A DNA stretch of 29,978 nt, from assembly GCA_016840855.1 (NCBI GenBank), contig JAEORO010000216.1, forward strand, positions 1 through 29,978. Direction: 5' to 3'. The notes beneath the pieces were generated by a model. The model had not been told where the DNA came from. It was given only the letters and a program-made list of their open reading frames with translations, and did no database searches. The stretch is from Candidatus Thorarchaeota archaeon (GTDB lineage Archaea > Asgardarchaeota > Thorarchaeia > Thorarchaeales > Thorarchaeaceae). This document shows positions 7,595-29,978 of the stretch, one piece after another (the stretch's first letter is position 1; every line of letters begins with the position of its first letter). Both the position numbers and the translations under genes were made by a program.

Positions 7595-7661
7595 TTGCAA
7601 TGAAGATAAACCAAAAAGATGATGTGTAATATCTACTCATTCAGCATGACAGTGATAACCA

Positions 7662-8543: not shown

Positions 8544-8589
8544 TTTTGAATAAGAAAAGACATCGGATGGATGACTTTTTCATTCTCCA

Positions 8590-8994: not shown

Positions 8995-9013
8995 TATTCA
9001 CCTACACATTTTA

Positions 9014-9313: not shown

Positions 9314-9326
9314 CTCTATTTCCTCC

Positions 9327-9677: not shown

Positions 9678-9688
9678 TTTGATTACTC

Positions 9689-10057
9689 CTACATTGTCAA
9701 TGTTACTAATCTTTCAGCTTCCCCAACAATTTCTGCGAATTCTGTCAAGCCAGTGACCTCAACCCCTGATATGAAATCGCCACCAGCTTGATCGAAACCT
9801 CTCGCAGAGGTACAAAGTCCACATGCCTGGAATTCAACTCCCTCATCAGCAAGCTCCTGCAGCTTCTCATTCATTGGTCTGTCTGGATCTGGATCTTGGT
9901 TTAGTTTTGCATTATTGACGCCATCAACAAAAAGGAATACTTTAACACCATATCCCTTGGCAAGTGCAGCTTTACACAAGTCATAGAAAGTATGGCTATT
10001 TTGGTAAGTATATGGCGATGTGGTCAGTAAAACGCCAAGTATCTTCTTCTCCATCAT
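9689..10057 (-). CDS. DsrE/TusD-like sulfurtransferase
   Basis: TTSPY, VFLFVDGV and ACGLCTSARG, which carries the active-site Cys. Confidence 0.85.
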   Translation of the reverse strand: MMEKKILGVLLTTSPYTYQNSHTFYDLCKAALAKGYGVKVFLFVDGVNNAKLNQDPDPDRPMNEKLQELADEGVEFQACGLCTSARGFDQAGGDFISGVEVTGLTEFAEIVGEAERLVTLTM

Positions 10058-10133: not shown

Positions 10134-10679
10134 TCAGCCAGCTTCAAGTAGCACATTTCTCCTGTTTTTCAGAAGCTGAATTATGCCAGTAAAAGGATTG
10201 ACCATTGGAACCTGCGCTTGATAGGTTTTATAATCGGCTCCAAACTTTTCCAAGTTCAGTTCCTCTTCAGATATGACTACTAAAATGATAAAGGGAATCT
10301 GAAGGAACATACAAAAGATGCAAAGCCAATGTTGAGAGGTAAAAGCTAGGGCGATGGCAAACATAGTCCAACCTACAGAAAAAGGGTGGCGGATTATCCC
10401 ATAAATTCCTGTCTGGATAAGATCTGCAGTAAATGCCCAACTCTTTCTCTCCTCAGATGTGTCATACTTCATTAGAGCTGTTACTGATACTGTAATGATA
10501 AGAAAACTCGGTATAAATAACAACCAAGCAACCCATCTCACAGATTCAATGCCAGCAAAATTGTAACTATACGCGAATACGTAAAGCTGCAAAATGAAGA
10601 AAATGCCTCCTGCAAAATTTGCTATCTGATTCTTAAAACTGAGGGCACTTCTTGTATCTTCTGTCATTAAGAAAGTCAA
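10134..10679 (-). CDS. ICMT/PEMT-like membrane methyltransferase-family protein
   Basis: TM segments, TGIYGIIRHP and EEELNLEKFGADYKTYQAQVP. Confidence 0.8.
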   Translation of the reverse strand: MTFLMTEDTRSALSFKNQIANFAGGIFFILQLYVFAYSYNFAGIESVRWVAWLLFIPSFLIITVSVTALMKYDTSEERKSWAFTADLIQTGIYGIIRHPFSVGWTMFAIALAFTSQHWLCIFCMFLQIPFIILVVISEEELNLEKFGADYKTYQAQVPMVNPFTGIIQLLKNRRNVLLEAG

Positions 10680-10810
10680 GAAGAGGAGTTAGTATATCTG
10701 CATTATCATTTTTCATATCTGATAAATGAGTGCGACAAGTTATTTTGGCAACCTTGAATACCTTAATGTACTGGAATTATTTTCATTCTCAAGTTATTGG
10801 AGGTAAATGA

Positions 10811-11884
10811 ATGGTCGAAGATCCAATAATCGTCTACATGGATAAGGAAGGAAAGCAACGTGAACTCGAAATAGATGATGAAGAAACCATTTTGGATCTA
10901 TCGAAAAAAGGAGTCACAGCTATTGACCTTCAAACTGTTCTTGCAATCCCTGTATTAAAAGAGCTTGAACTAGGTGGTAATTCACTTGAAGAGATTGAAC
11001 TTTCACCATTATCTAAATGTCAGGATTTACAGAAGCTGAGTCTTTTCAAAAATCAATTCAAATCAATAAATCTAAACCCACTGAAGGATTGTAGTGTTCT
11101 TGAAGAACTCAATCTTGGTTCGAATCAACTTGAAACAGTAGATTTGTCTTCCCTAGGATCCTCCAAGTTTCTTAAGAGGTTAAGGTTATTCAATAATGGA
11201 TTGATTAAGATTGACATCAAACCTCTATCTGGTTGTGAAAGTCTTGAAACCCTTGAAATTGAGAATAATGAAATAAAATCTATAGATCTCACGCCACTAT
11301 CAAATTGCAGTAATTTTCAACAATTGAACCTCATGTATAACAAACTCAAGATGATTGATTTGGCTCCATTATCGAGTTGCACCATGCTGAGGTTCGTGTA
11401 TCTTCATCATAATCAATTGGAAAATATTGATCTCACCCCGTTTGGAAATTGCAGTGATCTACGTATTCTCCGGCTAGGTGGAAATTCAATCAAAGAGATT
11501 AATCTAATCCCTCTTTCATCATGCGTTGAGCTTCGACGTTTAGGACTTGCTATGAACAGGATTACATCATTAGATTTGAGTCCTCTAGCAGGAGCTGAAC
11601 ATCTTTCTAGTTTAGATATTGCAGGAAATCAACTAACAAAACTTGACCTTAATCCACTTGGTAACTGTGAAGAGCTTACTGAGCTTTATCTCTATAGTGA
11701 TCACCCAGAAGAGAATGAATTTACTAAATTGGATATCTCACCATTGTTCAACTGTGCAGATCTTGAGGATTTTGGTGTGAGTGACGATACAAAATTGGTA
11801 GCTGACAAGAATCTCAAGGACGAAGACGATATTCCAATAGCAATAGATGAATTATTAGACGAAAAAAGGATAGATTGGATCTAA
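10811..11884 (+). CDS. leucine-rich repeat protein (about 12 repeats of 24 aa), no signal peptide
   Basis: Consensus LxxLxLxxNxLxxIDLxPLxxCxx; GGAGGT RBS upstream. Confidence 0.92.
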   Translation: MVEDPIIVYMDKEGKQRELEIDDEETILDLSKKGVTAIDLQTVLAIPVLKELELGGNSLEEIELSPLSKCQDLQKLSLFKNQFKSINLNPLKDCSVLEELNLGSNQLETVDLSSLGSSKFLKRLRLFNNGLIKIDIKPLSGCESLETLEIENNEIKSIDLTPLSNCSNFQQLNLMYNKLKMIDLAPLSSCTMLRFVYLHHNQLENIDLTPFGNCSDLRILRLGGNSIKEINLIPLSSCVELRRLGLAMNRITSLDLSPLAGAEHLSSLDIAGNQLTKLDLNPLGNCEELTELYLYSDHPEENEFTKLDISPLFNCADLEDFGVSDDTKLVADKNLKDEDDIPIAIDELLDEKRIDWI

Positions 11885-11965
11885 ATCCCCATTTCGCGCG
11901 TATGCATATTAGATTTAAATAAAGGAAAATCTCAGAGAAATTAACTGACACGAAGAGGACTTGCG

Positions 11966-12202
11966 ATGTCAATGAGGGAGCAAGAACTTGCAAGAATTGC
12001 GAGATTGTACGCGAGGTACTTGAATGGCCCATTAGGTCATGGAGTAATGGACCATCTCAAAGAAGGTGAGAGTTTTACAATCAGGTCTCAGGATGAAACG
12101 TTAGAGATAATCAAAGTCGATGGAAAAGCTGTTGTCAAAGTTGTTGAAGATCCTACAACAAAGGCTACAAATGATGTTGGGGGTCTATCAAACCTTCACT
12201 GA
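11966..12202 (+). CDS. small hypothetical protein
   Basis: 78-aa ORF filling the intergenic gap, with GAGG upstream and a helix-then-strands pattern. Confidence 0.6.
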   Translation: MSMREQELARIARLYARYLNGPLGHGVMDHLKEGESFTIRSQDETLEIIKVDGKAVVKVVEDPTTKATNDVGGLSNLH

Positions 12203-12261
12203 TTCTAAAGCAAAGCGGATATAACTAAAAACTACCGACGCAAAACTAGGTTGTGCTTCAT

Positions 12262-12909
12262 ATGGTAGTTGAAATGGATGATGCTACAAGAGAGCAGGTT
12301 CGAGAAATGTTCTCAGACATAGATAATGATGTTATAATTCATCTCTTCATTGAGGAGAAGAGTTGCCTTTATTGTAATGATGTGAAGGATTTGGTAGAAC
12401 AGGTTGCAGAGTTATCTGAAAAGATCAAGATTGTTGAACATAAGGGAGCTCTAGACGGTCCTATAGCAAAAGAGATGGGTGTAAAGTTTCATCCTGCTTT
12501 GGTACTTCATGGGAAAGACAAGTATAACATCAAGTTTTATGGCATTCCTGCAGGCCACGAGTTTGGTGCCTTAATTGGATCTATTATTGATGTATCTAAA
12601 GGAACAGCACCGTTACCGCCCGACATCATTGAGGACATCATTTCAATTGACAAGCCAATAAACATCAAGGTGTTTGTGACCCCTCAGTGTCCATATTGTC
12701 CAAATATGACAAGGTTAGCTCATCAAGCAGCTATTTTGAATCCACTCATTACCTCAGAGATGTATGAATCCCTTGAGTTTCAGCAATTGACAGAGAAGTA
12801 TGAAGTATTTGGTGTTCCCAAGACCATTATCAATGAAACTACTACTATTGATGGTCTATCACCTGTTGAAATGTTTGTTGAGAAACTTTTCGAAGCCATT
12901 GATACATGA
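12262..12909 (+). CDS. protein disulfide oxidoreductase (PDO, two thioredoxin folds)
   Basis: CLYC and CPYC motifs, plus FYGIPAGHEF and VFGVPKT. Start is ATG 12262 or GTG 12253. Confidence 0.9.
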   Translation: MVVEMDDATREQVREMFSDIDNDVIIHLFIEEKSCLYCNDVKDLVEQVAELSEKIKIVEHKGALDGPIAKEMGVKFHPALVLHGKDKYNIKFYGIPAGHEFGALIGSIIDVSKGTAPLPPDIIEDIISIDKPINIKVFVTPQCPYCPNMTRLAHQAAILNPLITSEMYESLEFQQLTEKYEVFGVPKTIINETTTIDGLSPVEMFVEKLFEAIDT

Positions 12910-12951
12910 CACTTCCAAAAATGATTATAGAGAGAATGGGTTTCAGGAGTT

Positions 12952-13236
12952 ATGGAAACCCAATCTTTTGTCATAATGCTGAGACCTACAAACGACTATG
13001 GTGTTCAAGGTACAAACGAAAAAGTGTCTGAGCACTTCAAATACCTCCAGAGTCTTTTGAAAGATGGAACCTTAACTATGGCAGGTAGGTTTTCAGAGGT
13101 ACTTATTGGACTTGTAATGATTGAAGCAAAATCGAGAGATAACGCTCTCGAAATCATGCGAAATGATCCTGCAGTTAAATCAGGAATATTTCATGCAGAA
13201 CTTTATCCCTGGCGTATTGCTTTGAAAGCGGAATAG
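12952..13236 (+). CDS. YciI family protein
   Basis: EHFKYL...MAGR...NDPAVKSG...ELYPW; GGAG RBS upstream. Confidence 0.82.
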   Translation: METQSFVIMLRPTNDYGVQGTNEKVSEHFKYLQSLLKDGTLTMAGRFSEVLIGLVMIEAKSRDNALEIMRNDPAVKSGIFHAELYPWRIALKAE

Positions 13237-13242
13237 GATAAT

Positions 13243-14178
13243 TTAGTCATCTTGGCATGTGAAGGTGAACTCAGTTTCATTAACATATTTGTAGGCTTGA
13301 TATGCAGCATGAACACCTTCGGCAACGCCTGTGATAGCTTGTTTGAACTCACTATCCACAACATCCCCCGCGGCATATATACCTTCAATATTAGTGCGAC
13401 TTGAACGATCAATCTTAATCTCACCTTTTTCGTTCAACTCAACACCAAGCTTCTTTGCCAATTCAGAATATGGGATTCCACCAATTGCAATAAAGATTCC
13501 ATCAAGTGTCAAGATATCTTTATCATTGTAAGGTTTGTCCAGTTTGACTCCCATAACTCTCTGGTCACCAAGTATCTCAGTGACATTTGTTTCAGTTATG
13601 ACCTCTATCTTTGGTTCTCTTTCTACACGACGAGCATTCACAGGTTCAGGTCGAATTTTTTGTCTTCGATAGATTATGTACACTTTAGGACAATATTTTG
13701 CCAAGAGCAATGCTTCCTTGACCGCGCTATCACTTCCGCCTACAACCCCCACTACTTTATCTTTATACAGCGGAGCATCACATAGGGCACAATAGCTAAC
13801 ACCTTTATTCTTCAGTTCGTCATGACCTGGGACCTCAAGCTCGCGTTCCTTCATACCTGTCGCGAAGAGTACTGACTTTGCCAAGAATGTCTTGTTTTCT
13901 GTGATCACATAGAAGATATTCTCTTTTGTTCTAAAGATGTCAGTCACAGTTCCGGTTTCAAGTAATACAGGGTAATCTAAAGCATGTTCCTTCAACTTAT
14001 CTGCAAGTTCCTGACCAGTCATCTGTATATACCCAGGATAATTTGCTACGTCATCAGTAAGGGTTATGGTCCCACCTTCTACGCTTCCAATTACCACTAC
14101 GCTTAGGTCTAAGCGTGCAGCATACATTGCAGCACCGTATCCTGTTACTCCAGAACCAATCACAACTAGATCGTACAC
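13243..14178 (-). CDS. trxB: thioredoxin reductase
   Basis: GSGVTG FAD-binding motif, GVSYCALCD redox centre, GGSDSA, IYRR and GIYAAGD. Confidence 0.92.
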   Translation of the reverse strand: MYDLVVIGSGVTGYGAAMYAARLDLSVVVIGSVEGGTITLTDDVANYPGYIQMTGQELADKLKEHALDYPVLLETGTVTDIFRTKENIFYVITENKTFLAKSVLFATGMKERELEVPGHDELKNKGVSYCALCDAPLYKDKVVGVVGGSDSAVKEALLLAKYCPKVYIIYRRQKIRPEPVNARRVEREPKIEVITETNVTEILGDQRVMGVKLDKPYNDKDILTLDGIFIAIGGIPYSELAKKLGVELNEKGEIKIDRSSRTNIEGIYAAGDVVDSEFKQAITGVAEGVHAAYQAYKYVNETEFTFTCQDD

Positions 14179-15061: not shown

Positions 15062-15613
15062 TTATTGGTCAGAAGCATACCTGTCTACTATTGATATGAA
15101 ACCTTCATCTAGTTGGTCAAACCCAATACCAGTTCTGGCAGATATCATTTGACCAACCATATTGTATTTCTCTATGAGATAGCGCATCTCATTGCTGACA
15201 AAATCAAACCGTGCTTCGTCCAAAAGGTCAACCTTGTTTGCCACAAGCATGAATCTTGATCCATCACCGTTGTTTAATCTGAGATTACTGTTCTCCTCTA
15301 TAGCTGGAATCCAATATCCTTCCAGATTATCCAATGTTTGCATTCTTGTGACATCAAAGAACAAAAGACCAACAGATGCCCCTCTAATCATTGCCTTCAT
15401 TTGTTCGATGAACCGAAGCTGTCCTCCAAAGTCCCAGATGCTTAGAACTACATCTTTCCCACTCGGAGTAGTCACATGTTTAGTATCAAAGCTAGCGCCA
15501 ATAGTTGTTCTAAGAAAATTGGGATCCGGAAAATTACCTGTTGTATACCTTTGAGTGAACGAGGTCTTACCACATTCTGTATCCCCAAGGACGACAGCTT
15601 TCAAGATCTTCAT
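15062..15613 (-). CDS. Ras-superfamily (Rab-like) small GTPase
   Basis: G1 GDTECGKTS, G2 TTIG, G3 WDFGGQ, G4 NKVD, G5 SAR. No C-terminal Cys. Confidence 0.93.
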   Translation of the reverse strand: MKILKAVVLGDTECGKTSFTQRYTTGNFPDPNFLRTTIGASFDTKHVTTPSGKDVVLSIWDFGGQLRFIEQMKAMIRGASVGLLFFDVTRMQTLDNLEGYWIPAIEENSNLRLNNGDGSRFMLVANKVDLLDEARFDFVSNEMRYLIEKYNMVGQMISARTGIGFDQLDEGFISIVDRYASDQ

Positions 15614-15622
15614 TTATTTCAC

Positions 15623-17062
15623 CTAATGTTCCAACACTATTGAACCATCCTCTTCTACACCATGGTCACTAAGTTCATCTAATTCTTTAACAGTGCGAGA
15701 TAAACGTGCTACTACAGGAGGACTGCTGAAAACTGCGATTCCACCTGCTAGTAACAAAATAGCAATAGAAATAATTGGAATTGCAGGAGGTTCTGGTGGA
15801 ATAATATCAGAATACATTGAAACGATTGCTATCATCAGAGCAGAAATAATAAACATCATCAATCGCCTCGCTGCAACAACTCCACCTGCTCTTGCTATTC
15901 GAACAGATAGTCGAATAAACATGAGTGTACCTATAGCAATGATAAGTCCAATTGCCATCCAGACATAATCATTGTAGACAGTAGTTGGCTGAGTCAATGG
16001 AAAAGTCATATATGCCACAGATGTTCCGAAGATAATCATTGTTTCACGAGTGAATGTCAGTACCCAATCACCATAGAATGAGGATGCAGCTGCCAGCATA
16101 AACGCGATAATTGCACAAGAAACAAGGACAGCATCAACCCAAACAAGATATCGATTCCATGCCATTCTTTGATTAATGTATAAGGACCATGATAGAGAAT
16201 GTGTAGAAACTACTAATGCTATGAAGGTGACAACTGCTCCCAAGTAAAGGGGCATTCTAGCACCGGTTTGTTCTGCTTGGGCGAGGAAGTACTCCAATGG
16301 AGCAATCAAACATAATGCTGCGAATAATTCAACAATAACAAAGTAAAAAGTTGGCCAAGCTCCAGCTCGCAATGAAGCTATAAGTAAAGGCATTTCGATT
16401 GTTATGGTGAAGAACAGTATGAAGGTGGCCATTGTAGTTCTCCAAGGTCTGCGAATGGAACTAAAAACTGTAGCAGCTACGATAAGGGGAATAACTTGCA
16501 GAATATAGTACTGTGGATGGGCAAATGTCCAGTCTGTAGCTGCGATGATCCAAGTCGCCATATATAAAATAAGAACCACAAGCAAAGATGCTGAGAAGGT
16601 CGAAGGGTTCTCGCGCAAGAGCACCACTGCTAGGTAAACAGACACTATTAGCAAAATGGATAATCCAATCAACATGAAATAAAACAGGAATCCAAAGTAT
16701 CCTTCCAAAAAATTACTAGCAAAAACAGCTGCGATAATGAGGGTTGTGATGACTGTACCCTGTTTTGCGCGATGTGTCGGAAAGAGAATCCATAATTCGG
16801 CGACCACAATGGCTCCGAGAAAGAAGGCTCCGGTACCTGTAATCATGAACATTAGTGGTTCATTCATGATTAGGAAGATTTCAAGAGCCATTGCAATCCC
16901 AGTCAACGAATAGGCAAACAATGCACGTTTCGTTTCCAAACCAATATCAGAGTAAATTTCTCGAATTCGTCTAGCAAAGACAAGTAGAGATAATAATAGA
17001 ATCAGAATAATTACTGTTCCCGAATCAACGAGTGCCTTATCAAAATCTATTGGTATTTGCAT
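15623..17062 (-). CDS. polytopic membrane protein, about 15 TM segments
   Basis: 479 aa of alternating hydrophobic stretches and short loops, with an acidic C-terminal tail. Confidence 0.8.
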   Translation of the reverse strand: MQIPIDFDKALVDSGTVIILILLLSLLVFARRIREIYSDIGLETKRALFAYSLTGIAMALEIFLIMNEPLMFMITGTGAFFLGAIVVAELWILFPTHRAKQGTVITTLIIAAVFASNFLEGYFGFLFYFMLIGLSILLIVSVYLAVVLLRENPSTFSASLLVVLILYMATWIIAATDWTFAHPQYYILQVIPLIVAATVFSSIRRPWRTTMATFILFFTITIEMPLLIASLRAGAWPTFYFVIVELFAALCLIAPLEYFLAQAEQTGARMPLYLGAVVTFIALVVSTHSLSWSLYINQRMAWNRYLVWVDAVLVSCAIIAFMLAAASSFYGDWVLTFTRETMIIFGTSVAYMTFPLTQPTTVYNDYVWMAIGLIIAIGTLMFIRLSVRIARAGGVVAARRLMMFIISALMIAIVSMYSDIIPPEPPAIPIISIAILLLAGGIAVFSSPPVVARLSRTVKELDELSDHGVEEDGSIVLEH

Positions 17063-17066
17063 TGCA

Positions 17067-17444
17067 TTAACCCCATAAACTACTTATCTCTCGCCCTCTT
17101 CTTCGAAGCGCTTTGGTAACAATTTGTGTTAGCCAGTCTTCCGAAGCATTTTCATTTTCCATTATCAGTGAAAGGACAGGATTGGCTTCTTTCTCGCTAT
17201 CAGCTTCACAGATGAACAGATGTTTTGCACGTTGAACATAACCCACAACACCCTTGCCAGATTTCATATAACTGGGAGTATTTGATTCGACAGGAGTTGG
17301 TCCATCTCTCTTAAGGGCTGTTGAAACAAGCTGGACAATTCCTGTTAGAAGAGCTACTCTCTCTGAACTCTGTTCTTCAGGGGGATACAATACCTTTGAT
17401 TCCATATTGTCTAACATAACTCTGGCAACCATACGAACAACCAT
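17067..17444 (-). CDS. hypothetical protein, longin-like fold suspected
   Basis: 125 aa with an apparent strand-strand-helix-strand-strand-strand-helix-helix pattern. The ATG overlaps the upstream stop (TAATG). Confidence 0.6.
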   Translation of the reverse strand: MVVRMVARVMLDNMESKVLYPPEEQSSERVALLTGIVQLVSTALKRDGPTPVESNTPSYMKSGKGVVGYVQRAKHLFICEADSEKEANPVLSLIMENENASEDWLTQIVTKALRRRGREISSLWG

Positions 17445-17743
17445 TAGGATTTACCTCCGAAAGCCTTTGTTAACCAGTCAATTTCCTTGGAGTCTTTCTT
17501 TTTCGACTCGGTTTTATCACTAGCAGATCGATGCGGTACTACAATGTCACGGATGCCCAAACCTTCTCCATTGCGGAGATTGTAGAGAGTCACCAAAAGC
17601 TCATGGTCCTTCTCACATCTGACAATAAGTGTTGGAGAGCGACCTTCATTTTGAATCCGTTCTTTCACTGTATCTGCCTCAGTGTCACTCATTTGGACTG
17701 AAGCATTACCTTTGCATTCTGGACATTTAAAACGGATTTCCAT
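17444..17743 (-). CDS. small zinc-finger-like protein
   Basis: FKCPECKG...VRCEKDH (C2-CH ligand set); AGAGGT RBS upstream. Confidence 0.65.
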   Translation of the reverse strand: MEIRFKCPECKGNASVQMSDTEADTVKERIQNEGRSPTLIVRCEKDHELLVTLYNLRNGEGLGIRDIVVPHRSASDKTESKKKDSKEIDWLTKAFGGKS

Positions 17744-20490: not shown

Positions 20491-20516
20491 ACTGGAGGAA
20501 GTAATTTTCCTCCAGT
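20491..20516. terminator. perfect 10-bp hairpin between convergent genes
   Basis: ACTGGAGGAA, loop GTAATT, TTCCTCCAGT, lying in the 41-nt gap between the iorB stop and the stop of the 1743-aa gene. Confidence 0.65.
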
Positions 20517-20519
20517 TTC

Positions 20520-23500
20520 TTATTTGAAGGCTTCATCGAGAATTGTGGTTGGTAAACTCGCTTTCTCAACTATTGCACTAATTTCATCTCGATTCAAGTA
20601 CTTTGCAAGGTCGCGAATATATTCTATAAAACGCTCATTCTCTGAACTAACCATTGATCGAGCATTGAATAGAAATACAAACGAAATTTCAGTTAATTCA
20701 CTACTTGGAATTTGGCTCTTCATCGATTTTTTAGCAATTCCTAGTGCCGCTTTGAAGACTCCAAGTCTGAATGCAGATGTTGCTTGTGGCTTCCATTTTT
20801 CTAGTACCTGAATCAGCGCATCTCTGTAAGCAGCTTCAACGTCTGGGGTCCACACAGCTCGACCAAATTCGTTGACTTTTAGTTTCATATGGCGTCTCAG
20901 GATTCTGTCTCTATCAATTGGATTTTCCATCAATTGATTTGCAAGCTCGATTTGTTTTTCGACTCCTACACTATTTTGAAGGTAAAGAGAAATTTGATTC
21001 GGCGAAATTCTATCCTTGGCACTAAGACATGCGATGATTGCTGATACAGGATCAACGATAGGAATACCTGAGAGTATTTTATCTGCTAAATCATCGGATG
21101 ATGCCTGCAACCAATTTTCTGCATCTATTTTAAACTGGCTAGTAGTTACGAGTTCTTGGACAGCTTGGCTCAGTCTATTCTGAAGTGTTGTGGCATAGCT
21201 GCCTAGTTTGAGTTTAATTTGAGGATGCGGATCGTCAACAGCAAACATTGCGGTTCGAAGACTATAGACATAATCAGCGAGCGAATCAATGTTTGCAGAA
21301 CCGGAAACACTCCCTTGCAATACCTGTTTTTCAATCTGGTTTAGAAGTTTCTCCCCTAAAGCATGATCTTTTAGTCCAGCAATCACCGGAACCAATGTAG
21401 TACTTGTGATGTGTTCAACCGATACCCCCATTCCTTCAGCTGCAGAAGTGACTGATTTGATTGCGTCAATAGCGTCATCTATTGACTTGAGCGACCCAGT
21501 GCTAGCTGATTTTGACACAACCTGAAGTGCAGAAATGCGGTCCTTGTTACTTGGTTCTTGAATAAGTTGTTCTAGAATAGGAGAAACTGCTTCTTCCTTT
21601 GTCTTGTCACTAATACTAATTGAAGTAATGTACTTAGCTATCTCTTTTGGCTTGTAGCTAGGGGTCATCAATCTAATAACCACAGAAGCAATCTCATTTT
21701 GCTGGTTTTCATTCAAAACTTGTGTTAGTTTTATCATCTTGGGGACTGATTTGACTGAGAGTATGTTTTGCGATGCATCTTCAATTCTGCCAAGGTTCAT
21801 CAAAAATCTCATGAGATGCTCATTATCCACACGTTCTTTTATTACTGAAAGAAGTAATTCCTGGTTTGAGGGGTCTCGTTGAAGTTTCGATGCAATGTAT
21901 AGAAGATCTCCTTCGGACTGGGAAACAAATTTTGATTGGGTTTCATCATCCATAGTATTGAGGTGATTTAGTAAATTTACAGCGTATCCGTAGTGGCTAA
22001 GAGTTGAAAGATCACGAAAAGTTTCTGCAGCTCCTTCGATATTTCCTTCCTCTAAATCTGCTATAGCTTTGTATAAGGAGCCCTTTTCCCATTGATCTAA
22101 ATTAAAGAAAACTCTGGAGGCCGTTCTAAATTCGCCTTTTAGAACCGATGCATTGGCTAGTGTTTGTAAGTCATTGAAGACAGCTCGTCCAAATTGATTC
22201 TTTAGTTTTGACATCATTTCCTCGGGTAAATTCTCTTTTACTGCTATTCTTGTTGCGGCTCGTGACATCATATTTTTGCAATAAAGATCGAATGCTTCAC
22301 CATTTTCTCCAGCAATTTCCGCATCCAGTCCTTGTTTCAATGAGGCGACTTTTGTACCTTTAATTCTTGTAAACAAACCACCTGCAACGACACACGCACT
22401 CAAAGCGGGAATGATAAACCAAATGACGGGTGAAACCCAGTGACTACTAACTAATACAAGCATGTCATAGTCACAGCATACTGTTTGTACCCCTATGGTA
22501 ATTAGCACATTCAGATTTTGTGAGCCTGTACTTCCAAAAATAACAAGCAGCTCGAAGCTGTGCGATGAGAAACCTGGCAACCATGAAGCTTCAGAAACCA
22601 AAAGGATTTCGTTATTCAAACTCACTTGAACAATTGTTTCAGCTTCAACGTCCTGAGGGTTGAACACAAGAATCTCAAGATTCCAAATTCCGAGTTCAGT
22701 GTACGCTGGTGATTCAATTGAATGAATGACTAAGTTAGGCCATTCAAGAATAACTTGAGTATAGAAAGTATCATTCGTGTTAACATCAGTAATCTCGACA
22801 TCATAGACTCCAAGAGGAGATGCAGAATTGAAATGGATATCAAAAATGCCCATCTCGGTACTGGTGCAAATCGCAGTACCTGAAGTCAGAAGATTATCTT
22901 CAGTGTCATACACATTGATGCTATATGTTCCTGCATATGCATAGATATAACCTACAGGATCATGCATACCTAATGGAAGATGATAGGTTGACCCTGGATG
23001 AGCACGAGCAGTTCTTGAAGGGCCAACACTCACGCATCTATCCATTATCGGATAGCATTGAGCATTCCAATCGTAGAATGTGATATCTGGATCGCCGAAT
23101 ATAATGAATTGCAGAGAACTTGCACCTATAACTGCGGCATCTGATGATGAAACATAACTATCAAGTCCGATATCGGATAACGCATATCGATGAGAATTTA
23201 TATCAAAAGCTGAATCGATAGCTTCTCCTAGTGTTTCATGATTATTAACCATAGACTGAACAACATTGTATTCAAACATATCCGCAGGTCCTACAAAAGT
23301 GTCCGTCCGGCAGGCAAGAACTGCGTCAGCACCGCTTTCCATAATGGTACTTGGACCATAGCTTGATCCAACTTGACAAGAGTCTAAGAACGCAAACATT
23401 CCGCGGAGGTTTGCACCCGTCACAAGTTCACTGATGTTGTAGATGTTCATATAGTTCTCAGGAGGGTATACAACATATTGGGGACTTTCTTCAGTATCAG

Positions 23501-25751
23501 CATCTGGTGAGGATGCTGAACGTCCACTATCATATCCACGCCATGTGTTAGTATAGAATAATGCTACCCGGCCATCGTGTTCGTATAGGTCATATCCTAT
23601 TCCTCCGTGTATTGTAGCAATCCATGTGTAAGGAGCGGTATTCAATTCACTAATTGTACTTGGGCCAACCTGCATTACTGGTGAGAGTCCGGAAGTTGAT
23701 ACTAATGATGAGAAGTCATTTGAATTATCAATAGTTCTGTACGCTCTGTTGTTTGCCATCACTTGGTCCCCATATGAATAAACAAGATAACTTCCAAGGA
23801 CCTCATGAGACCTACTAGACAGTGACATGAGTGGTATCCTAAGAACTGAACGCATTAGTTGTACAAGAGTTGCTTCTGTATTAATAGAGGAATATCGTCC
23901 CGCATCAGCTAATCCTGTCAGTGCTCTCTCAAAAGATGGTGGAAGGGCTTCACCAGGCCCATAATATGGTGCAATGGTGATAACATTATCTACAGAATCA
24001 ATACCAGCGATTGACGATAACCACGGAAAGAATCGGTCAGCTATTGCTGTCATTGTTGTGATAGGAGGGTTCATGTCACTAAAGTCCGCATCATTAGTCC
24101 AGAAATCTATCAATGAAAATGTAGCAATAAGGGGCATCTGGTATTCCCTATTCCAGCTGAGTTGCTCTGGAATTTGTGAGAGAGTCATTAACCCAGAGTC
24201 TGCATAACTGTAAGGAATCGCTGGGCAACCTCTCTGGGTTGCGGACAAACCAGCAGCTGCAAAGGAAGTTCCTAAGGAATCATAAAGAGCTACCGACCCA
24301 AGTGAGTTACTTCTTTCATCAAGAGCAGAAAGAAGTATTTGGACTTCAGTGAAGTTTTCTACCGCATTCACATTGCAACCTAATGCCTCGAGCTCATTCC
24401 TAATTGTAGAATCACCTTGACCTGTTGGATTCATAAAATAAACAGTTTGAGGAGAGATGTATTGAATGGCCTGTTCTGTGACAGAATCAAGAGATCTCCC
24501 ATTTGTGTATAGAAGCGGTGCACCAAGATGTGACGCAAGACTAGCACCATTTGCAGCATTTGCTGCAGCTGCCTGAAAGTCATTATTAATCACATTTTTC
24601 ACTATGCTTAGGTCATAGGACACAGAAGTATCTTCTGCACTGTAAACATATGCTCTATACGAACCAGGAGTTGGGTGGGATAAGCTTACAGAAATCTCAC
24701 TGACTTCGTTAACACCCTCAAACAACGCAAATCTATTGGCATTTAGAATGATATTGCCAGAAGGATCCAATACATTGAGACCAATATTTCGAGGTGTACC
24801 GCCAATGACTGATAAATCAAAGTCTATTTTGCAGTCTTCTCCAGGGGCAACAGTGAAGGTGTAGAAGTCAGCATCTGGAATATCTATATCGAAGTGAAGG
24901 TTGACTGTCCTGCTATACTCATAGAAATCAATTGCATGAAGAATCCAAGTCGAACCTGGACGTTCATCGTAAGGATACATTACTGTTCGACCGTCATAAT
25001 AAGGAAAATCCATTGGATAGTATCTAGAACCTTCTTGCGCAAGCAAGTCGAACCAAATGTAACTGTCTCCACTTGTTAGCGTGATGATTGCGCCTCCTCC
25101 TGTTGGTGAGTATGTACCAAAGTATTCCCAATCCGAGCTGGCTGAAGTGCTTCCACTTCGACTCGTACTATACATCGCATTCAGAGTTGCGGATGTATCC
25201 GCGATGGTGATGCTATCAGAGTACAGAGGTGAAAATGGAGCTTCTGTAAGAACCACTGTTGAGGTCCCAGCGAAGAATTCTGTGGCAAGATTTGCAGCCA
25301 TTTCTATGTGATCAGTTCCCGAGATTGTATAATGAGTGTCTGCTATAGATGTCAGTGCTTGGTGGTCAGGATTTTGAACATTTCCAACAAAGACCAATTC
25401 ATTCAGCGACCCACCAAGCAGTTCGAGCCATTCGTTTAATGGTGATGCGTAATCTTCAATATCATCAGGCAAGACAAGTCCGGAAGTTGTGTGAGTGCTA
25501 TTGGAACGGATTGTGAGAGGCACCGCAGCAAGGTAATTGAAAGCATTTGTCAGGTCATTCCCAGAATCGCCCACCATGACTGTTAGATCCATTGGGATGA
25601 CCCCTGAATATCCCGAATATTGTGAAGGCAAAACGGATTCTAAATCAAATACTGTATTACTTTGAATTGATGACTGGATAAATGCACCCTGAATTAAAGG
25701 CGAGAAGAACATGATTGCAAACCAAATCCCCATCAGTAGCCGCTTGTTCAT
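20520..25751 (-). CDS. type I membrane protein: signal peptide, CWB2-like segments, PPC-like domain, peptidase C25-like domain, Ig-like domains, TM and cytoplasmic alpha-solenoid
   Basis: MNKR plus a hydrophobic N-terminus; ANGASLASHLGAPLLYT; TIHGG (H715), FLDSCQVG (C792) and IIFGDP; TM at about aa 1105-1127; helical C-terminal ~615 aa; GAGGAGGG RBS. Confidence 0.75.
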   Translation of the reverse strand: MNKRLLMGIWFAIMFFSPLIQGAFIQSSIQSNTVFDLESVLPSQYSGYSGVIPMDLTVMVGDSGNDLTNAFNYLAAVPLTIRSNSTHTTSGLVLPDDIEDYASPLNEWLELLGGSLNELVFVGNVQNPDHQALTSIADTHYTISGTDHIEMAANLATEFFAGTSTVVLTEAPFSPLYSDSITIADTSATLNAMYSTSRSGSTSASSDWEYFGTYSPTGGGAIITLTSGDSYIWFDLLAQEGSRYYPMDFPYYDGRTVMYPYDERPGSTWILHAIDFYEYSRTVNLHFDIDIPDADFYTFTVAPGEDCKIDFDLSVIGGTPRNIGLNVLDPSGNIILNANRFALFEGVNEVSEISVSLSHPTPGSYRAYVYSAEDTSVSYDLSIVKNVINNDFQAAAANAANGASLASHLGAPLLYTNGRSLDSVTEQAIQYISPQTVYFMNPTGQGDSTIRNELEALGCNVNAVENFTEVQILLSALDERSNSLGSVALYDSLGTSFAAAGLSATQRGCPAIPYSYADSGLMTLSQIPEQLSWNREYQMPLIATFSLIDFWTNDADFSDMNPPITTMTAIADRFFPWLSSIAGIDSVDNVITIAPYYGPGEALPPSFERALTGLADAGRYSSINTEATLVQLMRSVLRIPLMSLSSRSHEVLGSYLVYSYGDQVMANNRAYRTIDNSNDFSSLVSTSGLSPVMQVGPSTISELNTAPYTWIATIHGGIGYDLYEHDGRVALFYTNTWRGYDSGRSASSPDADTEESPQYVVYPPENYMNIYNISELVTGANLRGMFAFLDSCQVGSSYGPSTIMESGADAVLACRTDTFVGPADMFEYNVVQSMVNNHETLGEAIDSAFDINSHRYALSDIGLDSYVSSSDAAVIGASSLQFIIFGDPDITFYDWNAQCYPIMDRCVSVGPSRTARAHPGSTYHLPLGMHDPVGYIYAYAGTYSINVYDTEDNLLTSGTAICTSTEMGIFDIHFNSASPLGVYDVEITDVNTNDTFYTQVILEWPNLVIHSIESPAYTELGIWNLEILVFNPQDVEAETIVQVSLNNEILLVSEASWLPGFSSHSFELLVIFGSTGSQNLNVLITIGVQTVCCDYDMLVLVSSHWVSPVIWFIIPALSACVVAGGLFTRIKGTKVASLKQGLDAEIAGENGEAFDLYCKNMMSRAATRIAVKENLPEEMMSKLKNQFGRAVFNDLQTLANASVLKGEFRTASRVFFNLDQWEKGSLYKAIADLEEGNIEGAAETFRDLSTLSHYGYAVNLLNHLNTMDDETQSKFVSQSEGDLLYIASKLQRDPSNQELLLSVIKERVDNEHLMRFLMNLGRIEDASQNILSVKSVPKMIKLTQVLNENQQNEIASVVIRLMTPSYKPKEIAKYITSISISDKTKEEAVSPILEQLIQEPSNKDRISALQVVSKSASTGSLKSIDDAIDAIKSVTSAAEGMGVSVEHITSTTLVPVIAGLKDHALGEKLLNQIEKQVLQGSVSGSANIDSLADYVYSLRTAMFAVDDPHPQIKLKLGSYATTLQNRLSQAVQELVTTSQFKIDAENWLQASSDDLADKILSGIPIVDPVSAIIACLSAKDRISPNQISLYLQNSVGVEKQIELANQLMENPIDRDRILRRHMKLKVNEFGRAVWTPDVEAAYRDALIQVLEKWKPQATSAFRLGVFKAALGIAKKSMKSQIPSSELTEISFVFLFNARSMVSSENERFIEYIRDLAKYLNRDEISAIVEKASLPTTILDEAFK

Positions 25752-25900
25752 AGTTCAGTACCCTCCTCTATCTGAATGATTAGTTGTTCAGTCTGTTTTC
25801 TAACCCTTCTAAATCGTAACAGGGTGATTAGTAGTAAGATGCTCAGTAGTGCGGTTGCACCCAGTGCTACTATCTGTAACATGTCCACAATAAACTGCAT
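25748..25900 (-). CDS. 50-aa single-TM microprotein (absent from the ORF track)
   Basis: MQFIVDMLQIVALGATALLSILLLITLLRFRRVRKQTEQLIIQIEEGTEL. TAATG overlap with the upstream stop and ATGA overlap with the downstream start. Confidence 0.8.
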   Translation of the reverse strand: MQFIVDMLQIVALGATALLSILLLITLLRFRRVRKQTEQLIIQIEEGTEL

Positions 25901-28900
25901 TATTCTTCCTCCCCCATATAATCAGGTTCTTCTTTTAACACTCCCCGAGGTTTTCGTCTCATCCTGTAGAACATCCTCTCGTTTACGAGGAAAACCCCTA
26001 GTGCAGGAATTATACTCCCAACGACCACAACACCAATAGTCAGTAGTTCACTCAAAGGCATAGGCACATCATAACGAAGCGGATTTCGACCACCATGAAA
26101 TTCATCGAAGTCGGAAACGCCATCTGAGTCAGTATCAGGATTGAAAATGTCAGTTCCCATGTCCCATTCTTCTTTGTTGGTCAGTCCATCCCCATCAGCA
26201 TCTGAGTCTGCATCTGCCACAAGTGGATCTGTCCCCGCGAGATATTCTTCGTAGTCAGACATTCCATCAAAATCTGTATCGAATAAAGTCGGGTCACTAC
26301 CAAACTGGAGTACTTCGAAACCGTCAGATAATTCATCGGAGTCTGAATCCACTAAGAGTGGACTTGTACCAAGAATTAATACTTCGTAACCATCTTCCAA
26401 GAGATCTTTATCCGTATCATCATCTATAGGACTTGTACCATAGGTCTCAATCTCTTCAAGATCTGTGAGATCATCTGAGTCAGAATCTCCACTGTTTGGA
26501 TTACATCCGTTGAGATATTCATCAATATTTGAAAGACCATCCAAATCAGCATCACCAGCTGAATCGTCGACTAGAATATTCAGCCCGTATGTATATTCCC
26601 AGAAGTCAGGCATGAGATCTGAATCAGAGTCACTGCTTGCTGGATTAGAGCCAAGATTGTACTCCTGAAGATTGGTAAGACCATCTGACTCAAGGTCTCC
26701 ACCTGCATCATTTATTGTCGGATTTAGACCATTGAAATACTCCCAACCATCTGGCATTAAATCAGAGTCTGTATCGTTGTTATTTGGAAGAGTTCCAATT
26801 ACATACTCTTGGAGGTTAGTTAGCATATCTGAATCGAGATCACCAGTGGTGTCATCTACAAGCGGGTCAAGACCATAAGTGTACTCAAATCCATCAGGCA
26901 TTTGATCGTCATCTGAGTCTACATCATTTGGATATGTTCCGATGCTGAACTCAAGGATATTTGTCAAATTATCTTCATCAGCATCGAACTGCGAATCATC
27001 TGCTCTCGGATTTAAGTTATACAACACTTCGTAGCCATCTGGCATAGAATCAGAATCTGTGTCATTATTTTTGGGATTAGTTGAATATTCAAATTCTTGA
27101 AGGTTAGTCAATGTATCATTATCAGGATCAAGAGACGCATCATTTACTAGTGGATTCAGAGCGTATAATACCTCCCAACCATCTGACATCAAATCACTAT
27201 CACTGTCTTTGTTGAAGGGGTGAGTGCCATATGTGCTCTCTTCAATATCTAGAAGTCCATCCGAATCAGAATCGCCTATTGGAGGTAAGATAACGAGAAA
27301 AACTTCGTTGCTTCCCGAATAAGATGAGTCGTACGCATTGGTTATCCAAAAGTTAGAGCTTCCAGTATACCCTGAAACATACATCTTTGAGTCGCTATCA
27401 ATAATCATTGCGCGACAACAGTCATCATTGGATCCACCAATATAGCTCGAAAATATGAGGTCATCTAGATTCTTGTTTATTTTGAGCAGGACTGTATCAT
27501 ATCCTCCACTTATTGTTTCAGAGAAGGCAAGCTCCATAGGGAAATTGGATGATGTTGACTCAATTGAGAGATACACATAACCCATAAAATCAATCCCGAG
27601 TCCATATGCTCTCTCAGTACCCGAACCTCCGAGATATGTCGCTGTTTCTATACTACCACTTTGAGCATTTACTCGCATGATTACTACATCATATCCACCA
27701 TTGTGTGAAAGGTCAAACCCATTTACCACGGGAAAGTTGCTACTCGCTGAAAAACCAGACAGGATGATATCGCCGTCAAGATTCTCACCAATTCTGACCA
27801 AGTAGTCATCAGAGGACCCTCCATAATAGGTAGAGAAAATGATACTCGAGAACTCCGAATCAAGCTTCGTTAAGAAGGCATCATATCCGCCATTTTGCGT
27901 TGTATCATATGCATTAATCATTGGAAAATCAATAGATCCGGTTGTTCCTGTAAGTAATATACATCCATCAGACATGAAGTTCATATCGTAGACAATATCG
28001 TAGCCTGTACCTCCAATGTAGGTAGACATCTCAATTTGATGGTCTGAAATATCAATTCTAGAAATAGAACCATCAGTGTTTCCACCATAGGATACATCAA
28101 ATGCTCCTTCAGTTATGGGGTAATTGCTCGAACTAGTATATCCGAATACCCAGACATCATTATCAGCACCTAAACGAAGTCCATTACCAATATCTCTCCC
28201 AGTTCCACCCAGATATGAAGAGTACAATAAACTGTTACCTGCACTGTGAAGCTTAATGATATATGAGTCATGATCACCTCTAAATGCATTCTGGAAAGCA
28301 TCTGCAGTTACAGGGAAATCACTACTTCGAGTGTAACCAGTCAGATAGATATGATTAGATGCATCGAGTACCATACCATAGGCTGTATCGTAGTACGACC
28401 CTCCAATGTATGTAGAGAAAATTAGTGTTTGACCGTCAGCAGCAAATTTTGTGACAAAGATATCCATACTGGATACAGTACTATCATAGCCATTGACAAT
28501 GGGGAAACCAGAACTGTATGTATATCCACTTACTACAATATTACCTAGACTATCGAGTTGCACAGCATAACCACATTCATCACTTGTGCTTCCAAGATAA
28601 GTGGAATAGATGGGTTCTCTGTTAACAATAGGATCATTAGGATCAAATGGATCGGTCATTAGGATTAGTATCTCTGTGCCATCTCCAAATGAGTCTCCAT
28701 CAGTATCAACAAGATGGGGATTTGTACCATAAGTCACGACTTCTTGGAAATCATTCAAAGCATCTAAGTCCGTATCAATTTTGTCAGGTCTGGTTCCATT
28801 CCTGAACTCGTAAAGGTTCAAGAGACCCTCACCATCCAAATCGAGAAACGCGTCAGTTGCATTCAACGGATCAAGACCATAGAAAATCTCCCAGTCATCT

Positions 28901-29978
28901 CGCATTTCATCTACGTCACTATCAATGGAGTCAGGTAGTGTTCCGTAGACCAAGACTTCTATACCATCTGGAATTGTGTCTTTATCTGTGTCGACAAGTG
29001 TAGGATCGCAATTGTAGAGATGAACTTCAGATCCATCCAGCAATAGATCTAGATCGGTGTCATTGAAATTCGGGTCGCAACCGTAGAGGAACTCTTCAGC
29101 ATTCGTGAGTCCATCAAGATCGGGATCAAGAGCTGAGTCATTGAAACTTGGATTCATTCCATTGATGATTTCCCAACCGTCCCACATCGAGTCCATGTCT
29201 GTGTCTCTCTTCACCCAGCTGCAGTTGTAGTATGCTTCATCATCGTCACTGATGCCATCAGAATCGAAATCGTCAAGATTTGGGAGAACGAACAGAAATC
29301 CATCCTGACCCGCAACAGAACCATCTAGTTCGTTGTATACTGGGAAGTTCGAGCTGAATGTTCTTCCCACAACAATTGCTCGCCCCAACTCATTCACAGC
29401 AATTCCATAACCAAACTCGTCACTGCTGCCGCCATAATAGGTAGAGTACTTCAAAAAGCCAGTGTCATTCAGTTTGGTTACAAATACATCTTGGTTTGAG
29501 TTATGGGTTTCATCATATGCATTATAGACAGGGAAGTCGGTTCCATCAACACGTCCAGTAAGGTAAACATTATCAAACGCATCAATATCGATCCAATACC
29601 CATAGTCGTAATTGTTGCTTCCTATGAATGTAGAATAGATTAGCATAGAGCCATCGCCAGTGAATTCGAATACTATTGCGTCATAGTTGTTATCCTTAGT
29701 GGGATAAATCGCATTTACAACCGGGAAGTTACTACTCTCCGAATAACCACCGATAATGACATTGTCATGAGAGTCAATGGCAACTCCCCTACCTCTATCA
29801 TCATATGAACCACCCATGTAAGTGGACCAGAGTATTGTTGTACCATTAGAAGCTAGTTTGACAAGTACGCAATCGTACTCTCCATTGAATGAATTATCGT
29901 ACGCATTCACCATTGGGAAGTTTGATGATGACGTCCTTCCAGTGAAGAACACATTCTCTGAGGAGTCTACATCTATGT
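25900..29978 (-). CDS. giant surface protein with SBBP beta-propeller repeats, TSP3-like Ca-binding repeats and a C-terminal TM anchor (5' truncated)
   Basis: Repeated YSTY(L/I)GGS..D.G.GI..D...Y.TG.T.S.NFP units and DxDxDG(L/M)xDxxE...G.(D/N)P units; TM LLTIGVVVVGSIIPALGVFLV followed by RMRRK. The frame stays open to the window edge (IDVDSSENVFFTG). Confidence 0.9.
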   Translation of the reverse strand, partial: IDVDSSENVFFTGRTSSSNFPMVNAYDNSFNGEYDCVLVKLASNGTTILWSTYMGGSYDDRGRGVAIDSHDNVIIGGYSESSNFPVVNAIYPTKDNNYDAIVFEFTGDGSMLIYSTFIGSNNYDYGYWIDIDAFDNVYLTGRVDGTDFPVYNAYDETHNSNQDVFVTKLNDTGFLKYSTYYGGSSDEFGYGIAVNELGRAIVVGRTFSSNFPVYNELDGSVAGQDGFLFVLPNLDDFDSDGISDDDEAYYNCSWVKRDTDMDSMWDGWEIINGMNPSFNDSALDPDLDGLTNAEEFLYGCDPNFNDTDLDLLLDGSEVHLYNCDPTLVDTDKDTIPDGIEVLVYGTLPDSIDSDVDEMRDDWEIFYGLDPLNATDAFLDLDGEGLLNLYEFRNGTRPDKIDTDLDALNDFQEVVTYGTNPHLVDTDGDSFGDGTEILILMTDPFDPNDPIVNREPIYSTYLGSTSDECGYAVQLDSLGNIVVSGYTYSSGFPIVNGYDSTVSSMDIFVTKFAADGQTLIFSTYIGGSYYDTAYGMVLDASNHIYLTGYTRSSDFPVTADAFQNAFRGDHDSYIIKLHSAGNSLLYSSYLGGTGRDIGNGLRLGADNDVWVFGYTSSSNYPITEGAFDVSYGGNTDGSISRIDISDHQIEMSTYIGGTGYDIVYDMNFMSDGCILLTGTTGSIDFPMINAYDTTQNGGYDAFLTKLDSEFSSIIFSTYYGGSSDDYLVRIGENLDGDIILSGFSASSNFPVVNGFDLSHNGGYDVVIMRVNAQSGSIETATYLGGSGTERAYGLGIDFMGYVYLSIESTSSNFPMELAFSETISGGYDTVLLKINKNLDDLIFSSYIGGSNDDCCRAMIIDSDSKMYVSGYTGSSNFWITNAYDSSYSGSNEVFLVILPPIGDSDSDGLLDIEESTYGTHPFNKDSDSDLMSDGWEVLYALNPLVNDASLDPDNDTLTNLQEFEYSTNPKNNDTDSDSMPDGYEVLYNLNPRADDSQFDADEDNLTNILEFSIGTYPNDVDSDDDQMPDGFEYTYGLDPLVDDTTGDLDSDMLTNLQEYVIGTLPNNNDTDSDLMPDGWEYFNGLNPTINDAGGDLESDGLTNLQEYNLGSNPASSDSDSDLMPDFWEYTYGLNILVDDSAGDADLDGLSNIDEYLNGCNPNSGDSDSDDLTDLEEIETYGTSPIDDDTDKDLLEDGYEVLILGTSPLLVDSDSDELSDGFEVLQFGSDPTLFDTDFDGMSDYEEYLAGTDPLVADADSDADGDGLTNKEEWDMGTDIFNPDTDSDGVSDFDEFHGGRNPLRYDVPMPLSELLTIGVVVVGSIIPALGVFLVNERMFYRMRRKPRGVLKEEPDYMGEEE

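Follow-up and report, generated by a model that had tools for sequence, protein, structure and literature searches.

In the window analysed here, a 29,978-nucleotide stretch of contig JAEORO010000216.1 from a Candidatus Thorarchaeota archaeon, the minus-strand open reading frame (ORF) at 20520..25751 (ATG start, 1743 amino acids (aa) plus stop codon) encodes P0001, very probably a membrane-spanning surface protein that joins a C25-type cysteine-peptidase fold to a large helical tail. P0001 is an architectural variant of a C25 peptidase, in which the fold is known, while the architecture and the tail domain are new. We propose that the part outside the cell would comprise, in order, an alpha/beta module, two beta-sandwiches, a module resembling the cell-wall-binding CWB2 domains, the gingipain/PorU-type peptidase domain (MEROPS C25, clan CD) with His715/Cys792 and two immunoglobulin (Ig)-like domains, that one helix would cross the membrane, and that a 613-residue all-alpha solenoid would lie in the cytoplasm. 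P0001 would then act as an active endopeptidase held at its own cell surface, cutting proteins there; the most plausible substrates would be co-expressed surface proteins, for example the SBBP/TSP3 adhesin encoded upstream, which might be matured or shed in a manner analogous to PorU processing, and the cytoplasmic solenoid, as a docking platform for proteins, would position, assemble or regulate the enzyme from within. For this full statement, in which activity, substrate and tail binding are all inferred, we estimate a probability of about 0.4.

Screening P0001 against Pfam (E ≤ 0.1) and NCBIfam returned nothing above cut-off, only a sub-threshold CW_binding_2 match. With residues 1-1130 as the query, phmmer retrieved just 39 proteins at E ≤ 1e-3 (15 at E ≤ 1e-30) from 1.84 billion representatives, and three of the 28 matches scanned with Pfam passed the 23-bit cut-off of Peptidase_C25, namely P0027 (33.4 bits), P0030 (43.1 bits) and P0040 (26.7 bits), which match P0001 at E 3.0e-20, 8.7e-18 and 3.5e-6, respectively. 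In all three, the C25 match covers the stretch aligned to P0001 residues ~600-900, and the profile match stops (positions 372-374 of 374) a few residues past the aligned GDP. Comparison by hhalign of a profile of the P0001 clade (14 sequences) with one of the C25-positive group (nine sequences) gave a probability of 100% and E 1.9e-69 over residues 51-899, with the HG and C columns aligned. By both phmmer and hhalign, P0001 is homologous to accepted C25 members. The catalytic domain also resembles solved C25 structures in the predicted model: AlphaFold2 folded residues 1-1130 (27-row alignment) with a mean predicted local distance difference test (pLDDT) of 81.8 and a predicted TM-score (pTM) of 0.78, and a Foldseek search of the PDB with this model placed C25 proteins at ranks 1-7 (E 4.6e-11 to 2e-8, probability 1.00). 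These were PorU (6za2, E 4.6e-11 and 7.7e-11; TM-score 0.15), Kgp (4rbm, E 1.2e-9, and 6i9a, E 1.3e-8; TM-scores 0.49-0.50 on the target) and RgpB (1cvr, E 6.5e-9, and 4ief, E 2e-8; TM-scores 0.43-0.45 on the target), followed from rank 8 onward by multi-sandwich glycosidases and, further down, Ig-like domains. The Pfam-positive homologs, the profile comparison and the fold search bear out the peptidase C25/clan CD fold that the initial annotation, made from the sequence of the window, had proposed.

Kgp and RgpB, which occupy Foldseek ranks 3-7, share with P0001 the succession of alpha/beta module, catalytic alpha/beta domain and Ig-like domain, a His-Gly pair and a Cys that each follow a beta-strand, and a GDP motif near the domain end, the GDP motif being a C25 hallmark. 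Unlike the gingipains, P0001 carries extra N-terminal modules, its own transmembrane anchor and the 613-aa domain predicted to be cytoplasmic. The best Foldseek match, PorU of Porphyromonas gingivalis, is likewise a multidomain, surface-located C25 fold; it is the C25-type sortase/C-terminal signal peptidase belonging to the T9SS (type IX secretion system) and processes other surface proteins. It differs from P0001 as a bacterial outer-membrane-associated T9SS protein with neither a transmembrane helix nor a cytoplasmic domain, and PDB searches found no sequence-level match between the two; the host of P0001 is an archaeon with no T9SS, and Pfam found no Por_Secre_tail (the T9SS sorting domain) in P0001, whose C-terminus consists of the transmembrane helix and the predicted cytoplasmic domain. 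The archaeal C25-like surface proteins P0030, P0027, P0024, P0031 and P0035, each anchored at its C-terminus, are true homologs (phmmer E 1e-12 to 1e-23) with the same module order from the pre-peptidase-C-terminal (PPC)-like domain to GDP, a His-Cys spacing of 79-95, a signal sequence and one transmembrane helix; unlike P0001, they have tails of 0-56 aa and fall on the other branch of the tree. The glycosylphosphatidylinositol (GPI) transamidase subunit GPI8/PIG-K is a clan CD type-I membrane protein that processes C-terminal hydrophobic anchors of surface proteins, but it is a eukaryotic member of another family, C13, with only a short cytoplasmic tail, and none of our searches matched it.

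The catalytic residues proposed for the C25 domain sit in motifs that the initial annotation had located correctly along with the ORF: TIHGG (residues 713-717; His715 codon 23609-23607) and FLDSCQVG (residues 788-795; Cys792 codon 23378-23376), followed by FGDP (residues 885-888; window 23099-23088). His715 follows the beta-strand 709-713 of the model and Cys792 the strand 786-790, both within blocks of pLDDT 83-92, and the clan CD pattern of a hydrophobic strand leading to His-Gly and then a strand leading to Cys, in that order, is found as WIATI-H715-GG and FAFLDS-C792. All 14 members of the P0001 clade share H715, G716, D790, C792 and G886, and at least 90% of them keep F885 and P888; because these proteins are only 27-72% identical and the architecture recurs among them, the conservation of motifs and architecture across relatives is more than chance. 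Among the 26 relatives that cover the site (in an alignment of 27 rows), both residues are present in 22 and neither in four (P0026, P0033, P0034 and P0038), with no relative retaining a single one. Such joint retention or loss is the pattern expected of a catalytic pair, and the H715/C792 pair predicted at the outset gains support from it and from the position of each residue behind a beta-strand. The insertion relative to gingipains that had been suspected is real, since the spacing from His715 to Cys792 is 77 here and 33 between His211 and Cys244 of RgpB (as given in the excerpted text of PMC9559808); a spacing of 70-95 residues is common to all relatives, and the stretch between the two residues in the model contains an extra hairpin (728-742) and a low-confidence loop (744-757). 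Judging from these sequence and model features, P0001 is probably catalytically competent.

The four relatives that lack both residues look like pseudo-protease forms of the same surface protein, with the fold and R609/R619 kept, and one of them, P0034, has a weak TPR_8 match.

An alternative is that P0001 works as an adhesion or ligand receptor, whose ectodomain would bind glycan through its CWB2-like modules or protein in its cleft, whose tail would relay or anchor, and in which catalysis would be secondary. P0026, P0034, P0038 and P0033 keep the fold in the absence of His and Cys, three of them together with the transmembrane helix and a Lys-rich tail (137-213 aa); 27 of 27 sequences, the dyad-less four included, have R609 and R619 unchanged, and the CWB2-like modules match cell-wall-binding domains. 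Within the P0001 clade, however, the dyad, G716, D790 and GDP are invariant or nearly so in 14 of 14 members, which argues for retained catalysis, and we consider a receptor of this kind unlikely.

On sequence grounds, P0001 is predicted to be a type-I membrane protein with its tail in the cytoplasm. Kyte-Doolittle windows mark an N-terminal hydrophobic segment (5-25), a strong one (1104-1130) and a weaker one (1558-1578). The first follows MNKR and forms a helix (2-21) in the model, in keeping with the signal peptide predicted initially, and the second (22362-22442 in the window; model helix 1109-1129) coincides with the single transmembrane helix that had been read at 22372-22440. Since an N-terminal signal sequence is combined with one transmembrane helix, the tail would lie inside the cell. 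All 12 long-tail proteins have no Lys or Arg in the 15 residues before this helix and 1-6 in the 15 after it. The lysine content of P0001 is 2/1078 (0.2%) in the ectodomain versus 45/613 (7.3%) in the tail (Fisher p 2.4e-18), and the same split is seen in 12 of 12 long-tail proteins (0.2-1.5% outside versus 2.8-7.4% inside); for comparison, cytoplasmic proteins of the window have 4-11% and the exported adhesin 1.4%. Charge pattern and lysine content both favour the one-helix, cytoplasmic-tail topology of the initial annotation, and neither places the C-terminal region outside the cell. The density of N-glycosylation sequons (0.37 per 100 aa in the ectodomain versus 0.16 in the tail) is below expectation in both parts and was not used for topology because it does not separate them. 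We rejected segment 1558-1578 as a second transmembrane helix: it is hydrophobic in only two of the 12 long-tail proteins (P0001 and P0013) and lies inside a modelled solenoid helix. In P0011, a hydrophobic segment is found elsewhere (1640-1661).

The ectodomain (22443-25673, minus strand) shows an extreme avoidance of lysine, with K308 and K385 as its only two, a content below that of the exported neighbour (19/1358, p 1.3e-3); of the two, only K385 is invariant across the 14-protein clade. The avoidance might protect a Lys-directed protease from itself, or it might be a trait that exported proteins here share in general. We rejected it as proof of Lys specificity, since other exported proteins of the window are also Lys-poor.

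The invariant K385 bears on a further alternative, proteolysis-triggered signalling, in which auto- or trans-cleavage of the ectodomain would change or release the tail in the manner of Notch or regulated intramembrane proteolysis. A single invariant lysine at a domain boundary of a nearly Lys-free ectodomain would suit such a scheme and, as circumstantial support, a protease, one transmembrane helix and a large cytoplasmic domain are combined in one protein. Against it, K385 sits within a beta-strand of the model, and neither the tail nor the neighbouring genes showed an intramembrane protease or a transcription-factor-like domain; we regard this scheme as very improbable.

Beyond the membrane helix, where the initial annotation had counted ~615 helical residues and seen a large cytoplasmic solenoid, the AlphaFold2 model of residues 1131-1743 (16 rows; mean pLDDT 89.3, pTM 0.58) resolves 613 residues into 38 helices and one small hairpin (DSSP). 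About 20 short helices are stacked in the first 285 residues and longer helices follow. Foldseek matched this all-alpha solenoid only to generic solenoids (SKI3/TTC37, Ctr9, Naa15, CRM1, IFT-A and designed repeat proteins; E 1e-4 to 2e-3, probability 0.9-1.0). It has in common with the TPR/ARM/HEAT scaffolds (SKI3/TTC37 7qdr, Ctr9 7dkh, Naa15 4hnw, CRM1) the helix-turn-helix stacking and helices of ~10-15 residues, but the TM-scores are 0.1-0.2 and repeats were not detected: Pfam gave zero families at E ≤ 10 for residues 1131-1743, with no TPR, ARM or HEAT model matched, and the hhalign self-comparison showed no off-diagonal match. Relatives of the tail among shorter proteins were searched for and none were found, and a profile search with the tail only gave three matches, all fragments of the P0001 family and none outside it. 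Profile matches in the PDB to CDC16, IFT172 and designed armadillo proteins (E 0.004-10) were dismissed as not significant. The tail matches 18 of the 47 proteins compared at E < 1e-20, including P0016 and P0017. Any coupling of the ectodomain to this tail, and the "receptor-like" character of the protein, are things that we infer.

The family is small and, to judge by those members that carry a name, associated with Asgard archaea. Ten relatives came from a word-indexed search, the full-length ones 1727-1743 aa long, and the named close relatives are each a "hypothetical protein" of Candidatus Thorarchaeota metagenome-assembled genomes (MAGs), none with a precomputed Pfam domain. The full architecture of 1719-1743 aa recurs in 10 full-length relatives, and the same tail is borne by two longer ones, P0016 (1927 aa) and P0017 (2023 aa), whose ectodomains are 32-33% identical to that of P0001. 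Named distant members come from Thorarchaeota (P0016), Lokiarchaeota/Promethearchaeota (P0026) and Helarchaeota (P0034). In a tree of the ectodomain (26 rows; P0037, which has no catalytic region, was excluded), the 12 long tails, of 594-620 aa, all belong to a single 14-row clade that has a Shimodaira-Hasegawa-like approximate likelihood ratio test (SH-aLRT) support of 100; in its sister group, which numbers 12, either the tail is 0-213 aa long or the transmembrane helix is missing. The architecture is as rare as first supposed, given that relatives outside this one clade have short tails or none. In the open-access literature, supplementary tables excluded, we found described neither a C25 peptidase with its own transmembrane helix and a large cytoplasmic domain nor the P0001 family; supplementary tables of metabolic surveys could list family members under C25.

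The genes around P0001 bear on what it might cut. The upstream adhesin (Pfam SBBP 5.2e-23, TSP3_bac 2.6e-5) has its transmembrane helix at 1304-1334 and a tail that ends in MGEEE. A 50-aa ORF between the two genes overlaps both, its ATG with the adhesin stop (TAATG, base 25900) and its stop with the P0001 ATG (ATGA), and GGAGG lies 7-10 nt ahead of both start codons. From this packing, the 50-aa ORF would appear to be associated with P0001, and the adhesin, the 50-aa ORF and P0001 would presumably be read as one transcript. The exact sequence of the 50-aa ORF is a predicted protein on five contigs of a public collection. At a second Thorarchaeota MAG locus, L001, a tail-less 1270-aa homolog of P0001 is found with an SBBP/TSP3 protein ~5 kb away that is 35% identical to the window adhesin over 504 aa (E 3e-69). 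We prefer a role in processing or shedding on three grounds: a digestive enzyme needs no more than a bare anchor, as the relatives show; PorU, a processing enzyme, heads the structural matches; and the gene is packed with the adhesin gene.

Nutrient scavenging is the alternative that weighs most on this preference. Here the C25 domain would digest detrital protein, the transmembrane helix would keep enzyme and products near the cell, and the tail would provide placement or stability. In the excerpts of two sources (PMC6461988; 10.1101/2025.03.11.642519), C25 "gingipain" genes of sediment archaea and Asgard MAGs are listed, and routinely taken, as extracellular peptidases. The window also encodes two M32 carboxypeptidases and a 2-oxoacid:ferredoxin oxidoreductase pair, the latter downstream of P0001 and convergent with it (it looks indolepyruvate-type from the size and domains of its two subunits), and relatives with a bare C-terminal anchor, such as P0030, exist. 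A plain anchor is nevertheless enough for tethering, as in P0030, P0024 and P0027, and scavenging leaves unexplained a 613-aa cytoplasmic domain that is kept in 12 of 14 clade members down to ~32% ectodomain identity; moreover, the peptidase and oxidoreductase neighbours stand outside the P0001 gene string, with the oxidoreductase genes in convergent orientation. We regard a nutritional role as possible, and as nearly as likely as the processing role.

Several points weigh against P0001 being an active C25 peptidase that uses its tail to process surface proteins. Searched on its own, region 560-910 did not find Peptidase_C25 (PF01364) in Pfam even at E ≤ 10, and no gingipain was reached in PDB searches by phmmer with P0001 or P0030 or by three family-alignment profiles; because P0001 thus has no direct Pfam, NCBIfam or PDB gingipain match, its C25 assignment rests on transitive homology and predicted fold. 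The Foldseek TM-scores of the ectodomain are modest (0.15-0.5) and the root-mean-square deviations high (14-30 Å), because the aligned regions span several domains. That the four dyad-less relatives keep the fold implies that non-catalytic roles exist in the superfamily. The tail, though its length is kept, diverges faster than the peptidase domain (identity to P0001 of 64 versus 79% in P0002, 22 versus 47% in P0011 and 21 versus 38% in P0016). Two proteins within the clade depart from the long tail: that of P0015 has 193 aa, and P0018 lacks one. Either record may be truncated; if neither is, the tail can be dispensed with. Finally, no more than two loci link P0001 to the adhesin, and in one of these, L001, the genes lie apart.

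Table 1 Features of P0001 and its immediate neighbours, in window coordinates.
Feature	Position	Strand	Evidence
P0001, whole gene	20520..25751	(-)	ORF; 10 relatives at 36-72% identity
Predicted N-terminal signal sequence, residues 1 to ~23 (MNKR, hydrophobic core, QGA)	25683..25751	(-)	Hydrophobicity 5-25; model helix 2-21
First alpha/beta module, residues 52-170, weakly CWB2-like	25242..25598	(-)	Alternating strands and helices, pLDDT ~90
Two beta-sandwich domains, residues 177-388	24588..25223	(-)	DSSP all-beta; second (284-384) PPC-like
Second alpha/beta module, residues 390-535, CWB2-like	24147..24584	(-)	Pfam sub-threshold and family profile match
C25-type (gingipain/PorU-like) cysteine-peptidase domain, residues 564-900	23052..24062	(-)	Pfam-positive homologs P0027, P0030, P0040; Foldseek ranks 1-7
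Codon of His715, proposed catalytic His	23607..23609	(-)	Strand 709-713 then H-G-G; invariant in 14-protein clade; 22/26 relatives
Codon of Cys792, proposed catalytic Cys	23376..23378	(-)	Strand 786-790 then S-C; same 22/26 relatives as His, absent in same four
FGDP motif, residues 885-888, end of peptidase domain	23088..23099	(-)	Motif and alignment with Pfam-positive relatives
Two Ig-like/MG2-like beta-sandwich domains, residues 914-1102	22446..23012	(-)	DSSP all-beta
Single predicted transmembrane helix, residues 1104-1130	22362..22442	(-)	Kyte-Doolittle maximum 2.27; model helix 1109-1129; Lys/Arg in 15 residues: 0 before, 3 after
Predicted cytoplasmic all-alpha solenoid, residues 1131-1743	20523..22361	(-)	AlphaFold2 pLDDT 89.3, 38 helices; Lys 7.3%
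Inverted repeat separating the 3' ends of P0001 and the convergent POR-family gene	20491..20516	.	10-11 pairs, terminator-like on both strands
50-aa ORF with one transmembrane helix, basic (RFRRVRK) then acidic tail (EEGTEL)	25748..25900	(-)	Between adhesin gene and P0001
Surface protein encoded upstream, 1358 aa or more, with its 5' end beyond the window	25900..29976	(-)	SBBP beta-propeller and TSP3 repeats, C-terminal transmembrane helix, 24-aa tail

The modules that flank the peptidase domain are listed in Table 1. The linker 22-50 behind the signal helix is modelled with low confidence as disordered. In the second alpha/beta module, Pfam CW_binding_2 (PF04122) matches residues 392-439 with 21.1 bits (cut-off 24.9) and is found in six of eight family members at E ≤ 1, and the family profile matches the CWB2 repeat of Clostridioides difficile Cwp6 (5j72) at residues ~400-470 with E 7.1e-9; a weak second match of the profile to the Cwp6 CWB2 region (profile positions 133-172) falls in the first alpha/beta module. 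The CWB2 modules of C. difficile Cwp6, Cwp8 and SlpA (5j72, 5j6q, 7acy) form a triplet, whereas P0001 has one or two, and to our knowledge its host has no peptidoglycan-type wall. By its position, the module at 390-535 may be equivalent to gingipain sub-domain A. For the PPC-like sandwich, Pfam PPC gave E 1.9e-3 on the P0001 sub-region (below cut-off) and was found in five of eight family members at E ≤ 1, and the region has a profile match to the C-terminal jelly roll of a subtilisin-like protease (3afg/9ues, E 3e-3 to 3e-5). The region 914-1102 matches Pfam MG2 weakly in P0001 (E 0.094) and at 4e-5 to 7e-5 in P0016 and P0018, with partial Foldseek matches to complement C3/C5 and transglutaminase sandwich domains.

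PADLOC defence models matched none of P0001, the 50-aa ORF and the adhesin, and tRNA and Rfam scans of the window gave zero matches. A sigma-70-type promoter scan found seven sites versus 14.7 expected, a model that is uninformative for an archaeon. Elsewhere in the window, two M32 (Taq-type) carboxypeptidase paralogs lie within 4 kb of each other (2192-3706 and 6035-7594, plus strand), which fits a peptide-based metabolism. A Ras/Roc-family small GTPase (183 aa) is encoded directly downstream of a 479-aa protein with ~15 hydrophobic segments (15062-17743, minus strand), in an Asgard-style gene string that also holds two small ORFs that matched nothing in Pfam, one of 125 aa and one of 99 aa with CxxC pairs. 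A thioredoxin-fold protein (620-1147, minus strand) with a secondary match to OST3/OST6, a eukaryotic family (E 4.7e-7), adjoins ribosomal protein S26e (193-525, plus strand). The window further contains a 357-aa leucine-rich-repeat protein (10811-11884, plus strand; LRR_8 5.9e-30) with no obvious signal sequence, and three adjacent small DsrE/DsrF/DsrH-like genes (TusBCD-like sulfur relay; 9014-10057, minus strand) beside a DUF22 gene. At locus L001, a DUF2341 ORF and the beginning of the tail-less homolog overlap (4474-9302, plus strand), the two being fused in another record, P0021, and a 1192-aa protein encoded beside that homolog (10429-14007, minus strand) combines five lamin-tail domains with an endonuclease/exonuclease/phosphatase domain.

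A bolder extension, which we put forward by analogy and think unlikely to hold as a whole, is that P0001 might be an Asgard "outside-in" surface receptor. Its protease or protease-like ectodomain would sense or remodel the surface, and the solenoid would recruit cytoskeleton, small GTPases or membrane-remodelling factors, perhaps by clamping the acidic C-terminal tails of the adhesin and the 50-aa ORF. Such a protein could be regarded as a prokaryotic forerunner of eukaryotic type-I receptor/sheddase complexes, and the dyad-less relatives with tails from Lokiarchaeota and Helarchaeota would be its pure-receptor form.

The C25 peptidases known so far are secreted or attached to the surface, and those of sediment archaea are simply counted among the digestive exo-enzymes. 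In P0001, a C25 fold appears to be connected across the membrane with a large and conserved scaffold in the cytoplasm, and this within the lineage of archaea that stands closest to eukaryotes; C25 surveys would miss the family because it escapes Pfam and NCBIfam. If the tail only places the enzyme, the family would still represent a new clade-specific architecture with a new orphan solenoid domain. Should the tail bind partners inside the cell, P0001 would be a rare archaeal single-pass, receptor-style link of surface events to the cell interior, and its ectodomain, a C792A mutant and the isolated tail would offer handles on how Asgard archaea organise their surface proteins.

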